Below, in pieces: positions 510 through 43,526 of a DNA stretch of 64,000 nt (the stretch's first letter is position 1; every line of letters starts with the position of its first letter). This stretch comes from an uncultured virus (IMG/VR IMGVR_UViG_3300025098_000016) (Duplodnaviria; Heunggongvirae; Uroviricota; Caudoviricetes): IMG/VR virus record IMGVR_UViG_3300025098_000016; one strand, written 5' to 3'. The notes beneath the pieces are model-generated. The model was not told the DNA's origin. It was given only the letters and a program-made list of their open reading frames with translations, and made no database searches. The position numbers and the translations under genes were made by a program.

Positions 510-1574
510 TTACTGACCTGTATGACCTAAGATTTTTGCTTGTTGTTTATTACCATGTGATGCCCCATCTGCATGTACTACTCCATGAGTTGGGCATACG
601 TTTTCTGCTTGTGTTTCTTGCGGTTTGTAGTTTCCTGTGTAACTTCTCGGTTTCCCCAAACGCTTGCGAGCACTTGTAATAATTTTTTTAAAACTTTCAT
701 CGTTTAACTCCATAACTTCATCGTTAAATCGTTCAATTGAATCTTCCATTGTAAGTCTAATAGGACTAAACTTACGCTTGCCTTCGCCTAAATCAATAAT
801 ATCAAAGTCTGGTGAATTTGGATAAGAAATATTAATAGGATATGTACTACCAATAACACTAGTACACGTAGTACCTAATGCTTTTGCCATATGTTGTCCT
901 AAACTATCACATCCAATAAAATGATCGGCAATTTGAATTACGCTAGACCAAACTCTTACATCTGGAATTTGTGGAACTGCTACTGGAACTTTAGTGTTTT
1001 CTTCAACTACAACAGGAAATTCGCTCATTACAATCACAGCATAATCATCACGTAAGTCTTTACAAATACGTATAACATCATTTAAATGAAAACTTCTGCT
1101 AGTGCCGTCAATTACAAAGTCGCCCATGTTTTCAGCTGTGCGTCCAAATGGTTGAAATACTACTACTTTGTCTTTTCCAGTTACTGCTTTGATTTCTTCA
1201 ACAACTTTATACCCTTGTACAAGTTCATGCTTGTTCATATGTATAGTTGGATCTGGTAGATCTCTTACACCTTTATTGTTTATAGCAATATCAAATGCTT
1301 GTGCTAAACTACATTTTTGATTATAATATTCCCAAACCCTATAAGGTTCTGGAGAATAACAATCTCTGTCTTTAATGTAATCTTTGAATAAATTTTTATG
1401 CCAGTTGTCGTATGCTAGTTCGTGTAGTTGTGGATGACCTTTATAAAAGTCCATTCCGCCTTCACAAACAATAATAAAGTCTTGATCTGTTTCGTAGAGT
1501 TTTTCAAATGCTGGAATACTTGCAACAACTCTGCCTGCTCCACCGTTGATAAAATATGCTTTTTTGCGTTCCAA
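510..1574 (-). CDS. Glycosyltransferase family 9-like (heptosyltransferase-fold) protein
   Basis: N-terminal GGAGRVVASIPAF and C-terminal ADHFIGCDSLGQHMAKALGTTCTSVIG resemble GT9 motifs (GD..P; D-S-G-x-x-H-x-A-x-A-L-G). Confidence 0.65.
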   Translation of the reverse strand: MERKKAYFINGGAGRVVASIPAFEKLYETDQDFIIVCEGGMDFYKGHPQLHELAYDNWHKNLFKDYIKDRDCYSPEPYRVWEYYNQKCSLAQAFDIAINNKGVRDLPDPTIHMNKHELVQGYKVVEEIKAVTGKDKVVVFQPFGRTAENMGDFVIDGTSRSFHLNDVIRICKDLRDDYAVIVMSEFPVVVEENTKVPVAVPQIPDVRVWSSVIQIADHFIGCDSLGQHMAKALGTTCTSVIGSTYPINISYPNSPDFDIIDLGEGKRKFSPIRLTMEDSIERFNDEVMELNDESFKKIITSARKRLGKPRSYTGNYKPQETQAENVCPTHGVVHADGASHGNKQQAKILGHTGQ

Positions 1575-26925: not shown

Positions 26926-27387
26926 TTATGCGTCTTCTGTTAGATCGTCATCATCTGTACCAACTAATGTGTTATCATCGCCAGCTTCTTCCATTCTAAC
27001 AATTCCTGATGCCGCGGCACCTGTTAGAGCAAATTTTAATGATTGTCCGTCTAGTGCGTTAGATCCAGTAGCACTTGGCTTTGCTAAAACAACTTTACGT
27101 CCTGTAATTTTTGCAACACCATATGTTTCTGAGTCAGCACCTTGTACTGAAATTGACATTTCGCCTGCACTTAAAGCCGCAGGTAATACACCTGTTTTTA
27201 AAGTACAATCAAATGTACCGCCTGTACCGATTTCTTCGCAACGGAACTTTTTAGATCCTAGTTGCTTAACGATAAAGCCTTCTTTAACTGCTGTGCCGTT
27301 ATGAAAATTTACTTTGATTTCTGTTCCTGAAGCTGTCGGGCCTGTGCCTGCAACTGCAAAAAGTCTTTTGTTTAGTGGTCTTCCCAT
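26926..27387 (-). CDS. Hypothetical (probable virion) protein
   Basis: 153 aa, strong SD (AGGAG), own late promoter and structured leader; first gene of the fibre block. Confidence 0.6.
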   Translation of the reverse strand: MGRPLNKRLFAVAGTGPTASGTEIKVNFHNGTAVKEGFIVKQLGSKKFRCEEIGTGGTFDCTLKTGVLPAALSAGEMSISVQGADSETYGVAKITGRKVVLAKPSATGSNALDGQSLKFALTGAAASGIVRMEEAGDDNTLVGTDDDDLTEDA

Positions 27388-27402
27388 TTTTTTCTCCTAT
27401 AT

Positions 27403-27486
27403 AAGTAGTCCAATGCCCGTTCTATGAGCTACGCTGTGGGTACAGCATAAGTCCGCCTCGCGGCACACTATCGACACAAGTATTTA
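27403..27486 (-). promoter_or_regulatory. Late promoter (TAAATA 27481-27486) plus structured 5' leader
   Basis: Hairpins GCC-GCGA-GGC (GNRA loop) and TATGCTGT-ACCC-ACAGCGTA, enclosed by GTC..TAGTGT/GCATTG-GAC pairing. Confidence 0.6.
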
Positions 27487-27916: not shown

Positions 27917-28132
27917 ATAAGCAAAATAGGTAGGATTCGGTTATACCTACAAGCACGTACACAGAATACCATTCTATCACGCACAACCTAGTTCCGCTCG
28001 GTAGAGCAATGTGATCCTCAGTCTCTCAACCTTGAACCTGGGTACCACCCCTAACTAGTCAAGTTCGACCCTTCTGGTAAAGGCCTCTTCCTTGCACTAT
28101 AAACAAAAATTAATTACTTTTTTGTTGCTTAT
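27917..28132 (-). ncRNA. Independent ~215 nt structured RNA, probably a manA RNA motif homolog
   Basis: Flanked by its own sigma70 promoter and terminator; the ends pair (ATAAGCAA/TTGCTTAT). Blocks GTGCAAGGAA, GTGGTACCCAGG and TGTAGGTATAACCGAATCCTACC match my recollection of phage manA RNAs. The family call is unverified; the ncRNA call itself is stronger. Confidence 0.7.
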
Positions 28133-28138
28133 GTACTT

Positions 28139-28167
28139 AATATAACAGACTTTATATATAAAGTCAA
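28139..28167 (-). promoter_or_regulatory. Sigma70-type promoter driving the ncRNA
   Basis: TTGACT-17 nt-TATATT. Confidence 0.8.
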
Positions 28168-28198
28168 CCTCTTTTTTGCCAAAATAGGAAAAAAAGTC

Positions 28199-28229
28199 AA
28201 AAAAATAGGCCCTCGAAAGGACCTATTTT
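28199..28229 (-). terminator. Rho-independent terminator after major capsid gene
   Basis: AAAATAGGTCCT-TTCG-AGGGCCTATTTTTTT. Confidence 0.9.
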
Positions 28230-28254
28230 AATTTTGTTTCTAAACTAAGAGATC

Positions 28255-37287: not shown

Positions 37288-38274
37288 ATGGTAGATAATA
37301 ATGTCCCACCAAACATGGGAAATCAAGGCATGCAGATGGGTATGCCTCAGCAACCGTCAGCAAAAAATCCGGCACAACCGCCGATGCCGCCGATGCAAGC
37401 TCAACCAGTACCGGTACAACAGCCGGCTGGTAACCCATTAATAAAACATTTAAGACAACCTAAGATTTATGTAAAGTTACCTAGTGAAGGGCAATACTGG
37501 CCGCAGAATGCATTGCAGAAAACAGAAACAGGTGAATATCCTGTATATGCAATGACTGCCAAAGATGAGATTACGTTTAAAACACCAGATGCATTATTAA
37601 ACGGTCAAGCAACTGTTGATGTTATTCAAAGTTGTATGCCAAACATTAAAGACGCTTGGCACACTCCTAGTATTGACTTAGATGCAATTTTAGTTGCTAT
37701 TAGAATGGCTAGTTTTGGAGAGAAGATTGATATGTCTTCTACTGTTCCAGGAACTAACTTAACTAAAGACTTTCAATTAGATTTGCAAACAATTTACGAC
37801 AACTTAACTAATACAGAATACACTGATACATTTCAAATTGATGGCTTTAGAGTTCAAATAAAACCAGCTAGTTACAGAATGGTTACTCAACAAGCTATTA
37901 AAGCATTTGAGGAACAGCGTATTTTTACTACAGTTAACGATGACAGCATTGATGAAACTGTCAAACTAGAACGTTTTCAAAAAAGTTTTGCAAAGTTAAC
38001 TGATATTAATATTAATGCAGTTGTTGCTAATGTAGTTGCTATTCAACCTGATGGTGCAGAAGAAGCTGTTACTAATCCAAAGTATCTAAAAGAATTTTTA
38101 GAAGGTGCTGAAGCAAAAACATATAATCAAATTGCTGATTATATTAAATCTCAAAAAGAACGATTTGAGCAAAAGCCGTTAGTAGTAGAAGCAACTCCTG
38201 AAGAAATTGAAGCAGGTGCTAGTAAGACCTACGAAATACCAATTACATTCGATCAGAGTAATTTTTTCGGCTAA
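37288..38274 (+). CDS. Baseplate hub assembly chaperone (T4 gp26-like)
   Basis: LPSEG.YW...VYAMTAKDEI...PDALLNG...IDLDAILVAIRMASFGEKI; ends in the characteristic ...NFFG. Confidence 0.75.
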   Translation: MVDNNVPPNMGNQGMQMGMPQQPSAKNPAQPPMPPMQAQPVPVQQPAGNPLIKHLRQPKIYVKLPSEGQYWPQNALQKTETGEYPVYAMTAKDEITFKTPDALLNGQATVDVIQSCMPNIKDAWHTPSIDLDAILVAIRMASFGEKIDMSSTVPGTNLTKDFQLDLQTIYDNLTNTEYTDTFQIDGFRVQIKPASYRMVTQQAIKAFEEQRIFTTVNDDSIDETVKLERFQKSFAKLTDININAVVANVVAIQPDGAEEAVTNPKYLKEFLEGAEAKTYNQIADYIKSQKERFEQKPLVVEATPEEIEAGASKTYEIPITFDQSNFFG

Positions 38275-38500: not shown

Positions 38501-39274
38501 CTAGGCTTTTACTTTTTTAGGTGCAGTTACAGTATAACCTTGTGACTTTAAGAATTTAATTGCTGACTTAACATCCATTGTTGGAGTAGCCATATCTTTA
38601 GCATCACTGTTACTACTAGCAGTCTTTGTGCTTGCTTGTGCCTTGCTAGTTTTTGAATCTTGTGCGCCTGCATCGCCATAAGAACTTTTATTAACTCTAC
38701 CACCTAGTTGTTTTTGAAAACCTTGTTGAACAAAACGTTTGATAATTTTCTTAGCTTGTCCACTTGATAATTGTACATCTACTTCATTTAATCTTGATTC
38801 ACTATACATAGATTCAATACCTGGGAGATTAGGTTGATCTGGTGTTAGTCCTGATGCTTGTGGAGAAAGTTTTTGTTTTAGTTTGCTTGCCGCTTGTCCT
38901 ACTTTGCTTGCTCCGGACTTAGCCGCGCCTGCGGCCGCTTTAGCGCCTTTAGCAACTTTTTTACCTGCTTTAGCCGCTTTTCTACCTAGACTAGGTTCTT
39001 GATTGATGTACTGCATTACTGCACTAGGTTTGCTTACAAAACCTTTTGCAACAAGAAAGTTAGCTAAACCTTTAGCTGTCATACCTTGTAGTTTAGGGTC
39101 TTGCTTACTTACTGCATAATAATCTTTGTAAATATTTGCAACTTCTTTATCTAGTTCAACATCTAACTGTGCGGCCTTGCCCATAGCTGTGTTTTTTCCT
39201 AGTGTTCTTTTCATAAATCTAATAGGACCTTCGTCAACTTGTTTAGATTCAGATAAAATGTCATGTACGTTCAT
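38501..39274 (-). CDS. Basic Lys/Ala-rich hypothetical protein, possible internal head protein
   Basis: MNVHDILSESKQVDE start and internal YSE/LNE sites resemble T4 gp21-cleaved internal proteins; TATAAATA promoter at 39296-39303. Confidence 0.55.
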   Translation of the reverse strand: MNVHDILSESKQVDEGPIRFMKRTLGKNTAMGKAAQLDVELDKEVANIYKDYYAVSKQDPKLQGMTAKGLANFLVAKGFVSKPSAVMQYINQEPSLGRKAAKAGKKVAKGAKAAAGAAKSGASKVGQAASKLKQKLSPQASGLTPDQPNLPGIESMYSESRLNEVDVQLSSGQAKKIIKRFVQQGFQKQLGGRVNKSSYGDAGAQDSKTSKAQASTKTASSNSDAKDMATPTMDVKSAIKFLKSQGYTVTAPKKVKA

Positions 39275-39339
39275 AGTTTAGCTCCCGATTAATTATATTT
39301 ATACTTTTCAACACAGAAATACTTATTAAATAACTCTAC

Positions 39340-39525
39340 ATGATTACAAGATATCGAATACTAGACAATCTCGATAATGAGATTGAAATTGTAAACAGTA
39401 TTGACGAAGTACATCAATATATAGAAACAATGCGTGATACACAACCTCATCTACAGCTCAGATATGAATCATTCGAAGTTAGTAGTGTTAAGTCGGGTTT
39501 TGGAAGAGATCCTGATCTACACTAA
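39340..39525 (+). CDS. Small hypothetical protein
   Basis: 61 aa ORF with TAAATA 7 nt upstream. Confidence 0.6.
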   Translation: MITRYRILDNLDNEIEIVNSIDEVHQYIETMRDTQPHLQLRYESFEVSSVKSGFGRDPDLH

Positions 39526-39534
39526 ATACTCGCC

Positions 39535-39606
39535 ATGTGTTCACCTATATTCTACTTCTTAGTTTTAACAGTAGTACTAATGTGGATAATCTATAAAAAC
39601 AATTAG
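39535..39606 (+). CDS. 23 aa hydrophobic peptide (not in ORF track)
   Basis: MCSPIFYFLVLTVVLMWIIYKNN*, with TAAATA 6 nt upstream. Confidence 0.45.
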   Translation: MCSPIFYFLVLTVVLMWIIYKNN

Positions 39607-40107
39607 AATTGTTACTTCGTAACAATTAGTTTATCGCTTACGCTCAAACTATAACACTTCGTTTGTTGATAGAATTAATAGATATGAATTAAAGCAATAT
39701 TACGTAGTAATATTGTAATTGCTTCATGTAGATTGTTTCAGTCAGACGGAACCTGTTTAGTGGTTCCATCTAATCTTGACACTTCATGTGAGTTCGTCAC
39801 AGCCGAGATTCGGAAATAGGTATTTTCACTGTTCAATGGGCTCTGACCTTTCCCAACCTACGTCGACATATGTAACATAAAGAGTACATTAACTAAGTTA
39901 ATGTGCAGTTTATAATACATTACCTCTCGCTTCGTTCCTATTGCTAAAGAGTTTTTATGAACATTGTGGTTCTTGACTAACAGCAACTAGCCTATATTGA
40001 TCGTTATGGTTCGTATGAATCAATATGTTACGTGTGTGGTTTTCATGCCACCCTTTCACAGCGGAATTATCTATCTGGCCCGCTATCCTTATGTGCTGTA
40101 TTGGCTT
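39607..40107 (-). ncRNA. ~500 nt structured non-coding element (large RNA and/or origin-like DNA)
   Basis: Largest non-coding gap in the window; at least 10 stems, several with G-U pairs that work only on the minus strand. Confidence 0.55.
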
Positions 40108-40109
40108 GC

Positions 40110-40532
40110 CTATATTTTTTGTAAGTGTTCTTTTAGAATCTTTGACCCGCCAACTCTAACATTAATAATACCATTATAGTAATCATCAGTTTCTAGTACT
40201 CTGCGTTCAAATTGTTCTCGTGCCTCTAAGTAACTTGCAATGCCTCTGCTTGGACAATAATGTAATATTTCTCTAGTAAAGTTGTCTTCGCCTAATGTTT
40301 CAACGTCTGCGTTAAGTCTATCACTAGATCCCCAATAGGTTTTCCAGTCACTTTCTTTTGTTCCACGTCTTTTATTCTTTTTGCCTTTTAGCGGAGGTTT
40401 AGTTGTCTTAAATTTTGCTAGTTTCTTGCCTACGTATTTCATGCCATTAGACTTATTTGTTATCAAGTATACAAATGCTTCAACGCCTTCAGGCATTTCT
40501 TTCACTTTTTTACCTTGATAAGTCCATTGCAT
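40110..40532 (-). CDS. Stand-alone GIY-YIG nuclease domain protein (SegE-like)
   Basis: FVYLITNKSNGMKYVGKK...YWGSS...NFTREIL...EAREQF...YYN; no C-terminal DNA-binding domain. Confidence 0.75.
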   Translation of the reverse strand: MQWTYQGKKVKEMPEGVEAFVYLITNKSNGMKYVGKKLAKFKTTKPPLKGKKNKRRGTKESDWKTYWGSSDRLNADVETLGEDNFTREILHYCPSRGIASYLEAREQFERRVLETDDYYNGIINVRVGGSKILKEHLQKI

Positions 40533-40550
40533 ACTGGTACTTACCGTTGC

Positions 40551-40751
40551 CTATGTTTTGGGGCCTTCCTTTTTGGAATTATGCTTATTGTGTATCTCGT
40601 CCATACGCTGTTTAGCTAGGCTACGTATTTCGCGTAACCACTTTCTGCTTTCACGGTGCGTTCGCACAGAGTTACGAGCCTCAAATTTCTCGTTTGCCTT
40701 AAAGTATGACATATATGCTTTTGTTAGCTTATCATGTATATCGTCATTCAT
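40551..40751 (-). CDS. Small basic helical protein, histone H1-like Hc1 type
   Basis: ANEKFEARNSVRTHRESRKWLREIRSLAKQRMDEI resembles the Hc1-like N.KAA..RARK.L.E...L.K..R.E pattern. Confidence 0.5.
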   Translation of the reverse strand: MNDDIHDKLTKAYMSYFKANEKFEARNSVRTHRESRKWLREIRSLAKQRMDEIHNKHNSKKEGPKT

Positions 40752-42519
40752 TGTGTATTTCTACATCGTTCTCATATGATGTAAAGCCATTTTCCTTTAT
40801 AACCTTAAGAACGTGTGTTACTCTTCCTACTAGTTCATCTTTATGGGATATAAGATAAACATTCTTTTGTCTTTCTCTACCCAGCTTCTTCAAAATACCT
40901 AAAGAGTTTTCAACTCCGCTAGTATCCATTCCGCTATCAATTAACTCATCAATAAACAATAAGTTGATATTCTGATACAAACTTTCCCAAACATCTCTAA
41001 ATGCAAAACTCATACCAAGTATAAGTCTATTACGCTCACCTCTACTTAAATTATCAAAGTCTAGATCTTGTCCTAGTTGTGTAATTTCGACTGTCAAGTC
41101 ATTTTGAAATACAACACTATGTGGTAATCCTAGTTTGTCAAGATAGTTAGTAAGTCTGTTGTTTAGGTATGCTAAGTTTTGATCAATAATTTTTTTACGA
41201 ATAAAACTATCTTTGTTAGTAAGCAGTTTTAACATAAAGTCTTGATGATCTTTTAAACTTGTTAAGTTGTTTACAGTATCCCAATCAATTACTTGTATTG
41301 CTGTTTCATTTAAATCATCAATCTGTTCTTGATAAGGATCAATTTCTGTTTTAGAACGATCAAGTGCTTCTTGTAATTGTGCTACATTCTGTTTATGATC
41401 ATATACTTCTTTAAGTGTTTCATAAAATGTTGTAGGTTGACCATTAATATCACCAATATTATCTAGTGCAGTTGTTACGTCAGTAACTTTAGAACTTACT
41501 TCAGACTGATATGCAATAGCGTCTTTAAGTTCTTTATCTTTTTTACCTTGTAGTTCGTCTTTTTTCTCGTCATGCAGTTCTTGACCACACGTATGACAAG
41601 TGCCTTGATCTAAATTTTTAGAGTCTTTTTGTGCTTTTTCAACACTTCTGTCTGCACGTACTAGTGCTGGCTCTAATGTGCTTAATTCCTTTTTAAGAGC
41701 CAAAATGGCATTATTTTGTTCTGCCCAATTTGCTAGTTTTTCGTGTTTATCTAATTCATTATCTACATCTAAGTGTTCTAATTCGTCAATCGAGCGTTCT
41801 AATTTAGCAATATCTTCTTTTTGTTTTGTATTCCATGCACTTTGTTTTGTTTGCAAACTACGAATAGTTTCACCAATACGTGTATTACTAGATTCAATAG
41901 CATTTATACGAGCAGTTTCGTCTGTAATTGCTTCTTTAGTTTGTCTTACTTTTTCTTTAAGTACTTCCGCTTTTTCAGATAATATTGTAATACCAAGTAA
42001 CTGTTCAATAATATCTTTTTGATCATTGACTCGCATACTTAAGAACGGTTCTGTGTATGTGTTTAGTGCAACAATATGCTTAAACATATTATGCGACATA
42101 CCCAATAGATGTATAATGTCTTCTTGTGTTTTGCGACTATCACCTTGTGACTCATCTAACATCTCTTGTTCTTGTTCATTTACATAGAACTTTAAGATAT
42201 TAGGACCACGTCCTCTTTCAATCTTATAATTTTGTCCGTCCTTTTCAAAAGACAGTGTAACCAACATACCTTTGTTGTTAGTTTTATTAATTAAATTATT
42301 GCGTTTAATATTTGTTAAAGCAAGCCCGTACAAGGCATAACTTAATGCATTTATAATAGTAGTCTTACCTGTACCATTACGTGATCCGCTATCATCGCCA
42401 CCTTGGTCAAGGTTTTCTCCTAGCACAAGTGTTAGTTGTTGTTTATCAAAATCAACTGCTTGGGTCTGATTGCCCACACTCATGAAGTTCTTTACGGTTA
42501 AACTTTTTATTTTAATCAT
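40744..42519 (-). CDS. gp46: Recombination endonuclease ATPase subunit (gp46 / SbcC / Rad50)
   Basis: Walker A NGTGKTT, zinc hook CHTCGQ, signature LSRGE, Walker B LLFIDE, ISH. Confidence 0.95.
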   Translation of the reverse strand: MIKIKSLTVKNFMSVGNQTQAVDFDKQQLTLVLGENLDQGGDDSGSRNGTGKTTIINALSYALYGLALTNIKRNNLINKTNNKGMLVTLSFEKDGQNYKIERGRGPNILKFYVNEQEQEMLDESQGDSRKTQEDIIHLLGMSHNMFKHIVALNTYTEPFLSMRVNDQKDIIEQLLGITILSEKAEVLKEKVRQTKEAITDETARINAIESSNTRIGETIRSLQTKQSAWNTKQKEDIAKLERSIDELEHLDVDNELDKHEKLANWAEQNNAILALKKELSTLEPALVRADRSVEKAQKDSKNLDQGTCHTCGQELHDEKKDELQGKKDKELKDAIAYQSEVSSKVTDVTTALDNIGDINGQPTTFYETLKEVYDHKQNVAQLQEALDRSKTEIDPYQEQIDDLNETAIQVIDWDTVNNLTSLKDHQDFMLKLLTNKDSFIRKKIIDQNLAYLNNRLTNYLDKLGLPHSVVFQNDLTVEITQLGQDLDFDNLSRGERNRLILGMSFAFRDVWESLYQNINLLFIDELIDSGMDTSGVENSLGILKKLGRERQKNVYLISHKDELVGRVTHVLKVIKENGFTSYENDVEIHNE

Positions 42520-43526
42520 AGTTCGTCATAGATTCCCAATAATAACTTCTTGTCGTAGTTTTCTGTATCCAATGCAGTAATTTCTTTAGTAACAATTTCA
42601 TCTACACTTTCAAATGTACTAATGTCAATGTCTGTATGTATTTCTTCGTCTTGTTGACTAGGAATTAGTGTAATTTCTCTGCAATCGTATTCGTTAATAA
42701 ATGTTTCCTTTATAAAACTTGCTTCTTCATAACTAATTGGAAGATCAAGTGTTACTCTAAGATACATTTTGTTTTTAAGTAGTGTGTCTTTTTCGTCTAG
42801 TAGTTGACTAAGTTTAACCGTGCGATACTTAGGACAGTCAAGCCAATCAATATATTGTGGTTCTTCGTTATTTTCTTTATCAAGTATCATCATACCACGT
42901 TTATCATCCCATGCATCTGCATAGTTGTGTGGAAAAGCATTACCCATATAATGTACTGCACCTTGTACTTGGCGTTTATGGAAGTGTCCGCTAAACACAT
43001 ACTCTTGATGTTTAAAATGATCAGCTTTTAGTTCGCCATGATCAGGCATCTGCACCATTGCATTCATATAGAAACTAGGTAGTTCAAAATGACCAAACAT
43101 ATATTTTGTTTTAATATTGCTAATCTTTTTCCATTCTTCACCAACAAGCCAAGGGACTAATGCAACATCATCTTCAACTAGTATTTCATCTACATATGTA
43201 ATACCAGGAATATGTTTGCCAAACTCTACACTGTAAACATCACGTTTGTCTTTGTAGTACAAGTCATGATTACCTGCAAAAAAGTAAAACTTTTCAAAAG
43301 CCGCACCTAATTTTTCTAGGCAACGTGTAGTCGCGTCTAGTGTTTGTACATTAATTGTATTTCTATTGTGATGCCAGTCACCGCAGAAAATACCAGTCTC
43401 ACAACCGTTTGCTTTTGCTTGTTCAATAAACCAATCTACAAAGTCTTCACAATCTTGTAAATGTAGTCTACTGTTAGACTTCAGTCCTAGGTGAATATCT
43501 GTAAACACCGCCGCTTTTTTAAACAT
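42516..43526 (-). CDS. gp47: Recombination endonuclease nuclease subunit (gp47 / SbcD / Mre11)
   Basis: Metallophosphoesterase motifs TDIHLG, GDWHH, GNHD, GHFH. Confidence 0.95.
   Translation of the reverse strand: MFKKAAVFTDIHLGLKSNSRLHLQDCEDFVDWFIEQAKANGCETGIFCGDWHHNRNTINVQTLDATTRCLEKLGAAFEKFYFFAGNHDLYYKDKRDVYSVEFGKHIPGITYVDEILVEDDVALVPWLVGEEWKKISNIKTKYMFGHFELPSFYMNAMVQMPDHGELKADHFKHQEYVFSGHFHKRQVQGAVHYMGNAFPHNYADAWDDKRGMMILDKENNEEPQYIDWLDCPKYRTVKLSQLLDEKDTLLKNKMYLRVTLDLPISYEEASFIKETFINEYDCREITLIPSQQDEEIHTDIDISTFESVDEIVTKEITALDTENYDKKLLLGIYDEL

Follow-up and report, generated by a model that had tools for sequence, protein, structure and literature searches.

A candidate structured RNA with two matching boxes beside a SegE-type GIY-YIG nuclease gene in marine T4-like phages

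SegB is a free-standing GIY-YIG homing endonuclease, the gene of which lies inside the tRNA gene cluster of phages T4 and T6, and in the mobE and gene 60 bypass cassette of T4 a homing endonuclease gene is combined with a short element. GOLLD, ROOL, IMES and manA are large orphan structured RNAs of phages and metagenomes. For bacteria, the Ssn enzymes were described, single-domain GIY-YIG proteins of about 94 amino acids (aa; cd10448) which cut single-stranded DNA and are inactive on RNA, and whose genes are flanked by their own NTS/SRM hairpin targets (PMC11893778). Here, a window of 64,000 nucleotides (nt) from the uncultured virus IMGVR_UViG_3300025098_000016 of IMG/VR was analysed, which is the whole stretch of DNA to which all positions refer and whose source is a marine T4-like myophage. 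In this window, a short gene for a SegE-family GIY-YIG nuclease is followed on the minus strand by a non-coding element with two matching boxes, R1 and R2, on either side of a hairpin, P5. On balance, it is considered somewhat probable that this element is an autonomous, uncatalogued structured RNA of aquatic phages with two contact boxes, which is coupled to a homing-type nuclease gene and does not act as its guide.

The closest analogy may be the one to SegB in the T4 tRNA cluster. In both cases, a Seg-type GIY-YIG gene lies beside conserved structured-RNA genes in a T4-like phage, and RNA and nuclease each occur elsewhere without the other. Unlike SegB, the nuclease described here has no C-terminal DNA-binding part and is fixed rather than sporadic, and the RNA is not a tRNA. 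With GOLLD, ROOL, IMES and manA the element shares that it is phage-borne, strongly conserved, composed of several stems with a predicted pseudoknot, abundant in marine data and functionally an orphan; however, it matches no Rfam 15 family, and we know of no paired direct-repeat boxes changing in parallel in any of these four. Like the mobE and gene 60 cassette, it combines a homing endonuclease gene with an element in which matching sequences flank a hairpin, but here no reading frame runs through R1 or R2, and the linker lengths vary by non-multiples of three.

The preliminary description of this DNA had proposed a nuclease-RNA system after the example of IscB and TnpB with omega RNA (the HEARO and IS605-orfB motifs). 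From this proposal, the structured RNA and its co-occurrence with the nuclease in T4-like phages were retained, while no feature of an RNA-guided nuclease was found. A small nuclease with a large structured RNA adjoining on the same strand is common to both. However, IscB and TnpB contain RuvC/HNH domains, whereas the protein here has the GIY-YIG fold; profile searches with it matched GIY-YIG families only and no RuvC or HNH nuclease. The guide-like variable end that had been looked for is absent, the variable parts being loops, linkers and inserts, and the R boxes differ by only 1-2 nt and are duplicated. Further, a variable spacer places the RNA 150-570 nt downstream of the gene end, with which it does not overlap, the co-occurrence of RNA and nuclease is not obligate, and Rfam gave no match. 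Thus, none of the three omega-type traits (RuvC domain, variable guide segment, obligate co-occurrence) was identified. With the Ssn systems (PMC11893778), the locus has in common a single-domain GIY-YIG gene flanked by a conserved hairpin element for which the hairpin-adjacent sequence matters; it differs by its SegE-type protein and by one large folded unit with a predicted pseudoknot, present once per genome. Many genomic target copies, as for Ssn, were not found: the window contains a single copy, and P5 occurs once in each of 261 loci. Tandem repeats of a whole unit, a trait of type III toxin-antitoxin systems, were also absent, only boxes of 8-13 nt being repeated around a single P5, and no ToxN-like neighbour was detected in Pfam and PHROG profile searches.

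The following features were assigned to the nuclease gene and the sequence behind it, all on the minus strand, with the basis of each assignment in brackets:

40110-40532, minus: short SegE-family GIY-YIG nuclease gene, 140 aa (PF19835, phrog_447)
39967-40109, minus: lineage-specific, hairpin-rich spacer after the nuclease stop codon (11-mer sharing)
39921-39966, minus: upstream conserved block (..CTTTAGCAATAGGAACGAAGCGAGAGGTA), possible 5' part of the RNA (11-mer sharing)
39872-39920, minus: lineage-specific hairpin insert CATTAAC/GTTAATG (39884-39906) (locus comparison)
39720-39871, minus: conserved RNA core of about 150 nt (nhmmer, pattern and covariance-model matches, RNAalifold, pair counts)
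39813-39864, minus: stem P1 (39857-39864 with 39813-39820) around stem P2 (39852-39855 with 39837-39840) (pair counts)
39843-39848, minus: 5' strand GGUCAG of the predicted pseudoknot in the P2 loop, partner CUGACU at 39740-39745 (pair counts)
39782-39793, minus: R1 box ACTCACATGAAG (7-mer identity with R2, mutual information)
39744-39771, minus: hairpin P5 (AGATGGAACC / GGTTCCGTCT) with a variable loop and a near-invariant 3' strand (pair counts)
39722-39733, minus: R2 box ATCTACATGAAG (7-mer identity with R1, mutual information)
39695-39716, minus: hairpin H1 directly after R2, loop C-UAC-G (folding of downstream sequences)
39627-39651, minus: hairpin H2 with the conserved GAGCGTAAGCG block (downstream comparison)
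39595-39626, minus: hairpin H3 (ATTGTTAC-GAA-GTAACAAT) with a U-run, likely the 3' end (read from the sequence)

The core was examined for pairing on 47 sequences less than 90% alike, and its fold was predicted by RNAalifold, which gave P1, P2 and P5. P1 was paired in 100% of the cells, one of its pairs being changed from UA to CG or GC in 4 of the 47 sequences. P2, which carries an invariant loop of 11 nt, and P5 were each paired in 98.4% of the cells; in P5, two pairs were altered on both sides and many G-U cells were present, so that P1, P2 and P5 together contain three pairs with changes on both sides. The P2 loop most likely pairs with the consensus CUGACY directly 3' of P5, forming a pseudoknot; 99.3% of these cells were paired, with one-sided changes only (G-U/G-C and C-G/U-G). 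In total, 94.9% of the cells were paired, as compared to 30-46% when the 3' partners were slid by 1-3 columns as a control. About 100 G-U cells were counted in P1, P2, the pseudoknot and P5 versus 11 non-standard cells. These G-U cells are valid on the minus strand only, and therefore the folded strand is the minus strand, which is that of the nuclease gene; the strand preference of the wobbles that had been noticed before was thus confirmed. The covariation that had been called for was obtained for P1, P2 and P5 in the form of compensatory and G-U changes, but not for the GTGA/TCAC stem, which pairs in only 69% of the cells, so that this stem (P4, GUGA/UCAC) was rejected as a conserved stem. 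As judged from the aligned sequences, the core is a real folded minus-strand RNA with covariation.

R1 and R2 are direct repeats on either side of P5. Their 7-mers were identical in 102 of 105 sequences and, with viral and metagenome contigs taken together, in 190 of 194 distinct cores, which contain 12 variants of the 7-mer: ACATGAA (144), ACATGAT (9), ACATAAT (8), ACGTGAA (8), ACAGGAA (5), GCATGAA (4), GCATAAA (3) and five rarer ones. Among the four exceptions, three differ at one position, and in one the R1 box was not found. For each variable R1 column, the matching R2 column was the top partner by mutual information, and no third column covarying with the two was identified by this measure. 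In divergent variants of the RNA the repeat persists with other letters (AGATAAT, AGATGAT, ACTTGAT, ATATGAT, TCATGAT, TCGTGAT).

Several origins of this identity were considered and rejected. A cis-acting partner of R1 and R2 was not found, since in the variant lineages no complement, G-U pairs allowed, is present within 900 nt on either side. Turnover of tandem units was dismissed because P5 was never duplicated in 261 loci, where the copy numbers of P5 and R are constant with one P5 per locus. A derivation of R from the start region of the next gene was likewise rejected; these starts are generic ATGAAR without a link to the R variants. With no tandem turnover, no complement and no tie to the next gene's start, the identity of R1 and R2 is therefore taken to be selected. 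Because both boxes change together in every lineage and no nearby complement exists, two equivalent contact sites are assumed, and one partner contacted twice is the simplest reading of the identity.

The gap behind the nuclease gene is the largest ORF-free stretch of the window, as had been claimed, both with open reading frames (ORFs) of at least 60 aa counted (471 nt, 39526-39996) and with ORFs of at least 90 aa counted (835 nt, 39275-40109). Only ORFs of 32-34 aa were found in it, and its indels do not occur in threes. It folds more stably than shuffled sequences on either strand, with a z of -3.24 for minus and -2.50 for plus. All the stems listed in the preliminary description are in place, as is the duplicated sequence ACATGAAG (39722-39729 and 39782-39789). 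The single element of about 500 nt, however, was not borne out, as only part of the gap is conserved when scored by 11-mers shared with 71 related loci. The spacer hairpins (39970-40109; stems AGCGG/CCGCT, GTGG/CCAC, ATATTGAT/ATCAATAT and GGCTAG/TTAGTC) consist of 11-mers common to 0-8% of these loci, and the block at 39921-39966 of 11-mers common to 21-27%. The CATTAAC/GTTAATG insert is replaced by a short GCGTAAGCG-type hairpin in other sequences, and in one RNA-library contig 39870-39920 is omitted, with 9 other letters in its place. The core is conserved far above the flanking genes and coding DNA, with invariant runs of 17-29 nt, which remain invariant while the gp46 protein drops to 53% identity. 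Taken together, the whole RNA probably comprises about 370 nt on the minus strand (about 39597-39966). In the proximal spacer, other lineages have short tandem or direct repeats of their own within about 100 nt after the nuclease stop (loci L016, L021, L029, L038, L057 and L078); these are of the AAGGCACA or CACAGACACCAAGTCA type and differ between lineages, and in L020 a 20-nt sequence, CACTTAAACTAAAAACTTAA, is present three times.

Of 145 distinct sequences, 121 contain a hairpin with a dG of -4 or lower in the first 50 nt after R2. C(UUC)G, C(AUUC)G and C(UAC)G predominate among its loops; an RNA signature in the form of UNCG tetraloops was rejected, the loops being C(UUC)G or C(UAC)G triloops. 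A GAGYG..AGYG block, which belongs to H2 in the window, follows R2 in 124 of the 145 sequences. H3 was missed by a simple terminator scan, which requires 3 G-C pairs. Kissing of the H1 loop with the H3 loop was rejected, since by eye the middle positions of the two loops do not match, either in the window or in locus L142.

The nuclease matched PF19835 (SegE_GIY-YIG) above cut-off over residues 3-123 (E 3.9e-34), leaving only about 17 residues outside the domain, and phrog_447 with an E of 9.6e-38. It is thus a SegE-type, single-domain member of the GIY-YIG superfamily, and the earlier claim of a 140-aa GIY-YIG protein without a DNA-binding extension was correct. The C-terminal DNA-binding extension of Seg-type enzymes was not found in the 140-aa protein, nor was their sporadic presence among close relatives at one site, the nuclease being fixed in its clade. 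In a 20-sequence family alignment Y22, Y33, G35, R87 (at least 90%), E88 and N120 are kept, and with them the catalytic Tyr, Arg, Glu and Asn. The AlphaFold2 (AF2) model reached a pLDDT of 94; its best Foldseek matches are to the I-TevI catalytic domain, which are weak and below significance (1mk0, TMt 0.65, E 0.45), and no relevant entry was obtained when solved structures were searched by sequence. The phrog_447 profile is 148 positions long, and therefore the short form is the norm for this family, the relatives having the same length in the PHROG profile and the family alignment. Since the short length is normal, an RNA partner need not be assumed merely because a DNA-binding domain is missing. 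A relative is encoded in 598 of 600 pattern-matched IMG/VR stretches, the best 80 of these relatives being 75-96% identical, and the named relatives of the gene occur only in Kyanoviridae-type phages.

The linkage of RNA and nuclease was followed in several samples. In loci found by the RNA pattern alone and with at least 800 nt upstream, the nuclease gene was located 150-570 nt upstream on the same strand in 71 of 73 cases, and in 94 of 96 when nuclease-found loci were added. It also preceded the RNA in 48 of 51 metagenome loci for which 900 nt or more of upstream sequence were available. When gp46 was used as the key, 34 of 37 loci with at least 1300 nt downstream contained both and three neither; in one of the three, the nuclease follows 1.9 kb further on and the sequence ends before the position of the RNA. 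The nuclease was present in 34 of 36 decidable gp46-keyed loci. All five exceptions among the pattern-found and metagenome loci are non-T4-like phages with terminase-type neighbours, which contain the RNA alone. The expected co-occurrence thus held without exception in T4-like phages in three samples and failed in three other groups, where the RNA stands alone. In T4-like phages, RNA and nuclease behave as one cassette.

The nuclease-free RNA loci, further contigs included, form three sequence groups in which R1 and R2 remain identical (ACAGAAA, ACATGAA, ATCATCAAGT). Locus L119 belongs to one phage group without a GIY-YIG gene; there, an HNH endonuclease gene is located about 1.5 kb upstream of the RNA (638-1039, plus strand), and genes for the small and large terminase subunits follow. 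Conversely, the nuclease gene of phage Melnitz is found in another context, with small ORFs next to it and no RNA module. From the RNA-alone and nuclease-alone loci it follows that each gene is able to exist without the other. In some phages, the cassette is convergent with gp46. In locus L003, gp46 is 61% and the nuclease 91% identical to the window; such outliers hint that the nuclease-RNA cassette has been exchanged between diverged phages. For loci L003, L075, L076 and L160 as a set, the identity to the window is 78-91% for the nuclease and only 53-61% for gp46.

With respect to expression, part of the stretch was present in 20 sequencing runs, 16 of them RNA-library runs, from 15 studies. 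Contigs of four metatranscriptome studies cover the nuclease ORF through to 39728, one 193-nt RNA-library contig extends from 39962 to 39728, and the end of the nuclease ORF and the spacer are bridged by RNA-library contigs. Over 39300-39700, no contig cover was present in four metatranscriptome runs, a lack which proves nothing. The metatranscriptome mapping that had been suggested thus gave cover of the locus, though ends, strand and level are not shown by assemblies, and the indication that the RNA is expressed is weak.

In the fold on which the favoured reading builds, P1 encloses P2, the P2 loop most likely pairs with CUGACY after P5, R1 and R2 flank P5, and three more hairpins follow. 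The folded 5' domain may hold R1 and R2 in place as two equivalent contact sites for one trans-acting partner; this might be a nucleic acid that is recognised through base pairing, or a dimeric protein contacting them with its two halves. The GIY-YIG gene would be a free-standing homing-type gene, fixed beside the RNA gene in T4-like phages in a two-gene cassette, and both would probably be co-transcribed. Since copies of the RNA are also found in the absence of the nuclease gene, a role as guide of the enzyme is improbable.

Several points weigh against this reading. A consensus scan of the minus strand gave no convincing sigma-70-like promoter or canonical terminator for the RNA. Assembled contigs demonstrate presence in RNA libraries rather than ends, strand or abundance, and DNA carry-over is possible. 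No two-sided change was seen in the pseudoknot in the 47 sequences. A trans target of R was not found: the window contains only chance-level matches, and when five contigs of 31-120 kb were searched for the complement of the R 11-mer, it occurred at the RNA itself and at just one other site. The complete coupling in about 150 T4-like loci exceeds what is expected for a merely parked selfish gene and is equally compatible with a functional partnership. Further, C(GAA)G mini-hairpins, which are a hallmark of stable single-stranded DNA hairpins, recur in the RNA loci, and a role of the same strand at the DNA level is therefore conceivable.

A functional partnership, in which the RNA serves the single-domain GIY-YIG enzyme as cofactor, scaffold, regulator or substrate, is regarded as unlikely, yet as an alternative to be taken seriously. 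The enzyme might, for example, recognise or cut at R1 and R2, or the boxes might direct it to a nucleic-acid target. Such a partnership would fit with the gene order and strand, which do not vary in any T4-like locus of sufficient length, with the persistence of the pair in three subtypes of the RNA and in either of two arrangements with respect to gp46, and with a protein that has no recognition domain beyond its Lys/Arg-rich segment and is strongly conserved, unlike a decaying selfish gene. Of 68 nuclease loci with 650 nt or more of downstream sequence, 44 contain the R-hairpin-R module, but the same count leaves 24 loci without it, to which phage Melnitz is added. The maintained identity of R1 and R2 in the three nuclease-free phage groups also speaks against a dependence on the enzyme, as does the lack of a hypervariable guide segment. 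Literature searches found no precedent for an RNA-guided GIY-YIG enzyme. The Ssn enzymes, which are single-domain GIY-YIG proteins with their own flanking target, act on single-stranded DNA and not on RNA (PMC11893778).

The element could alternatively function as single-stranded or duplex DNA, for example as a replication origin or priming site, with R1 and R2 as iteron-like protein sites around an extruded hairpin or as a single-stranded DNA target of the GIY-YIG enzyme after the manner of Ssn, and with the transcript being incidental or acting as a primer; this is thought to be improbable. For geminivirus Rep, a co-evolving DNA-binding protein yields parallel change at iterons, and the direct repeats described here change in parallel in the same way. 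The recurrent C(GAA)G mini-hairpins and H1, which on the other strand has the loop type of H3, can be read in the same sense, as can the position of the element next to terminase genes in nuclease-free phages. However, the strand-asymmetric G-U pairs, the long-range pseudoknot and the compensatory changes fit a folded single strand rather than duplex sites, the locus is covered by RNA-library contigs, and the copy number of P5 and R in 261 loci is constant. The composition signal in the window reflects gene orientation. The genes of Ssn enzymes have hairpin targets of their own on their flanks (PMC11893778), but the protein here is assigned to the SegE type by Pfam.

For a more specific form of joint action, in which R1 and R2 would be twin elements used by RNA and GIY-YIG enzyme together, either for targeting the enzyme or as two boxes at which the RNA is processed, strong doubts are held. 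If true, it would be the first RNA-dependent GIY-YIG nuclease system, and the nuclease-free copies would be relics or would use another partner.

An ordinary 3' untranslated region, whose stacked terminators and stability hairpins insulate an early gp47-gp46-nuclease operon from convergent and late genes and whose RNA has no separate function, is highly improbable: although the locus ends a same-strand operon ahead of a convergent small ORF and a late promoter, several of the hairpins are lineage-specific and the transition from nuclease ORF to spacer is spanned by RNA-library contigs, the near-invariant blocks of 17-29 nt are conserved above flanking coding DNA, the same core occurs in unrelated phages in other contexts, and pseudoknot and paired R boxes play no role in termination.

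The RNA favoured here as an autonomous element is widespread. Its core pattern was identified in at least 120 IMG/VR stretches and at least 119 metagenome stretches, and in total in more than 230 viral and metagenome contigs, the pattern scans giving lower bounds only. A covariance model (which was likewise named R1) found one copy in the window with 161.7 bits. In bacterial genome assemblies, mostly metagenome-assembled genomes (MAGs), only 3 true core matches were obtained, all with a GIY-YIG gene, and these are read as phage-like contigs. One Neomarinimicrobiota MAG has a near-identical nuclease-RNA cassette on each of two contigs, L203 (335 kb) and L204 (153 kb); these probably represent phage DNA that was assigned to a bacterial MAG in binning.

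A known identity was not found. Searches with Rfam 15 over 39200-40700 with E up to 10 gave nothing except a chance CRISPR-DR60 match inside an ORF, and in seven variant loci there was no match with E up to 1, in agreement with the earlier statement that the element belongs to no known family. A tRNA, tmRNA or other known RNA family was thus rejected on the basis of tRNA, tmRNA and Rfam 15 scans. No description of the RNA was found in literature searches, and six supplement files of a catalogue of about 8,500 phage candidate RNAs contain no match, although its alignment files may list the motif (PMC10690425).

In further loci, weak full-length matches of the covariance model lie at the same place after the nuclease gene, and a reading of these loci showed variants with a different 5' domain and the same 3' module. 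In this module, a first box is followed by a hairpin whose stem is unrelated in sequence, then by a UAUGRCUC-type tail, a second copy of the box and another hairpin. The stem of P5 has an entirely different sequence in type-II and type-III variants, and in type III an analogous GAGUUA/UGACUC pairing was seen by eye. A module script was run on the 68 nuclease loci mentioned above and detected the module in 50; as controls, the antisense strand scored in 21 and the upstream sequence in 7 of these 68 loci. After curation, 44 loci were kept, in which the 7-mer and the position (250-470 nt after the stop) fit; six matches were dropped (L012, L020, L023, L024, L028 and L068). Several of the 24 loci without the module have other long non-coding stretches, by eye with partly similar motifs. 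A generic R-hairpin-R detector was dropped as uninformative, since it responded on both strands in every one of the 68 loci. In L012, L020, L042 and L078, a further large non-coding element was noted 150-600 nt after the stop of the same nuclease family, which shares only the short motifs GGTACAGCGTAACCGCC and CACTGGTCTGACC with the RNA studied here. In L042, a GGTGAAG box occurs on both sides of a hairpin.

The genes around the cassette usually follow the order gp46, small ORF, nuclease, RNA, variable genes and hub gene. In the window, these are:

40744-43526, minus: gp47 and gp46 recombination nuclease genes
40551-40751, minus: small basic ORF of 66 aa between gp46 and the nuclease gene (tblastn)
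39340-39525, plus: small convergent ORF of 61 aa (tblastn)
39296-39303, minus: exact TATAAATA, the T4-type late promoter consensus, ahead of a 257-aa gene (read from the sequence)
37288-38274, plus: baseplate hub gene

The 66-aa ORF was detected by tblastn in 42 of 52 type-I loci and had no family match in Pfam/PHROG-type profile searches; for the 61-aa ORF, tblastn gave matches in 12 of 52 loci with 34-93% identity. The exact TATAAATA on the minus strand lies 21 nt upstream of the start of the 257-aa gene (38501-39274), which is Lys/Ala-rich, has no family match and was found in only 7 of 52 related loci. A late promoter had been claimed for the nuclease gene itself; the TAAGTA at 40538-40543 is present but differs from the T4-type consensus. 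Elsewhere in the window, two Rfam RNAs were identified above their gathering scores, manA at 27920-28124 (minus, 62.9 bits) and freshwater-2 at 27385-27467 (minus, 65.1 bits), and the second-largest ORF-free gap (27987-28254) overlaps the manA match.

Few sequences of these phages, which are abundant in the ocean, are as conserved as the RNA, and it is absent from the catalogues searched. Two short direct repeats which mutate in step without a complement in cis were not found described for the RNA families compared, and a specific partner is suggested by this pattern. Should it be a host molecule, a new way in which phages control marine bacteria would be revealed; should it be the nuclease, the system would represent a new class of RNA-dependent enzyme.

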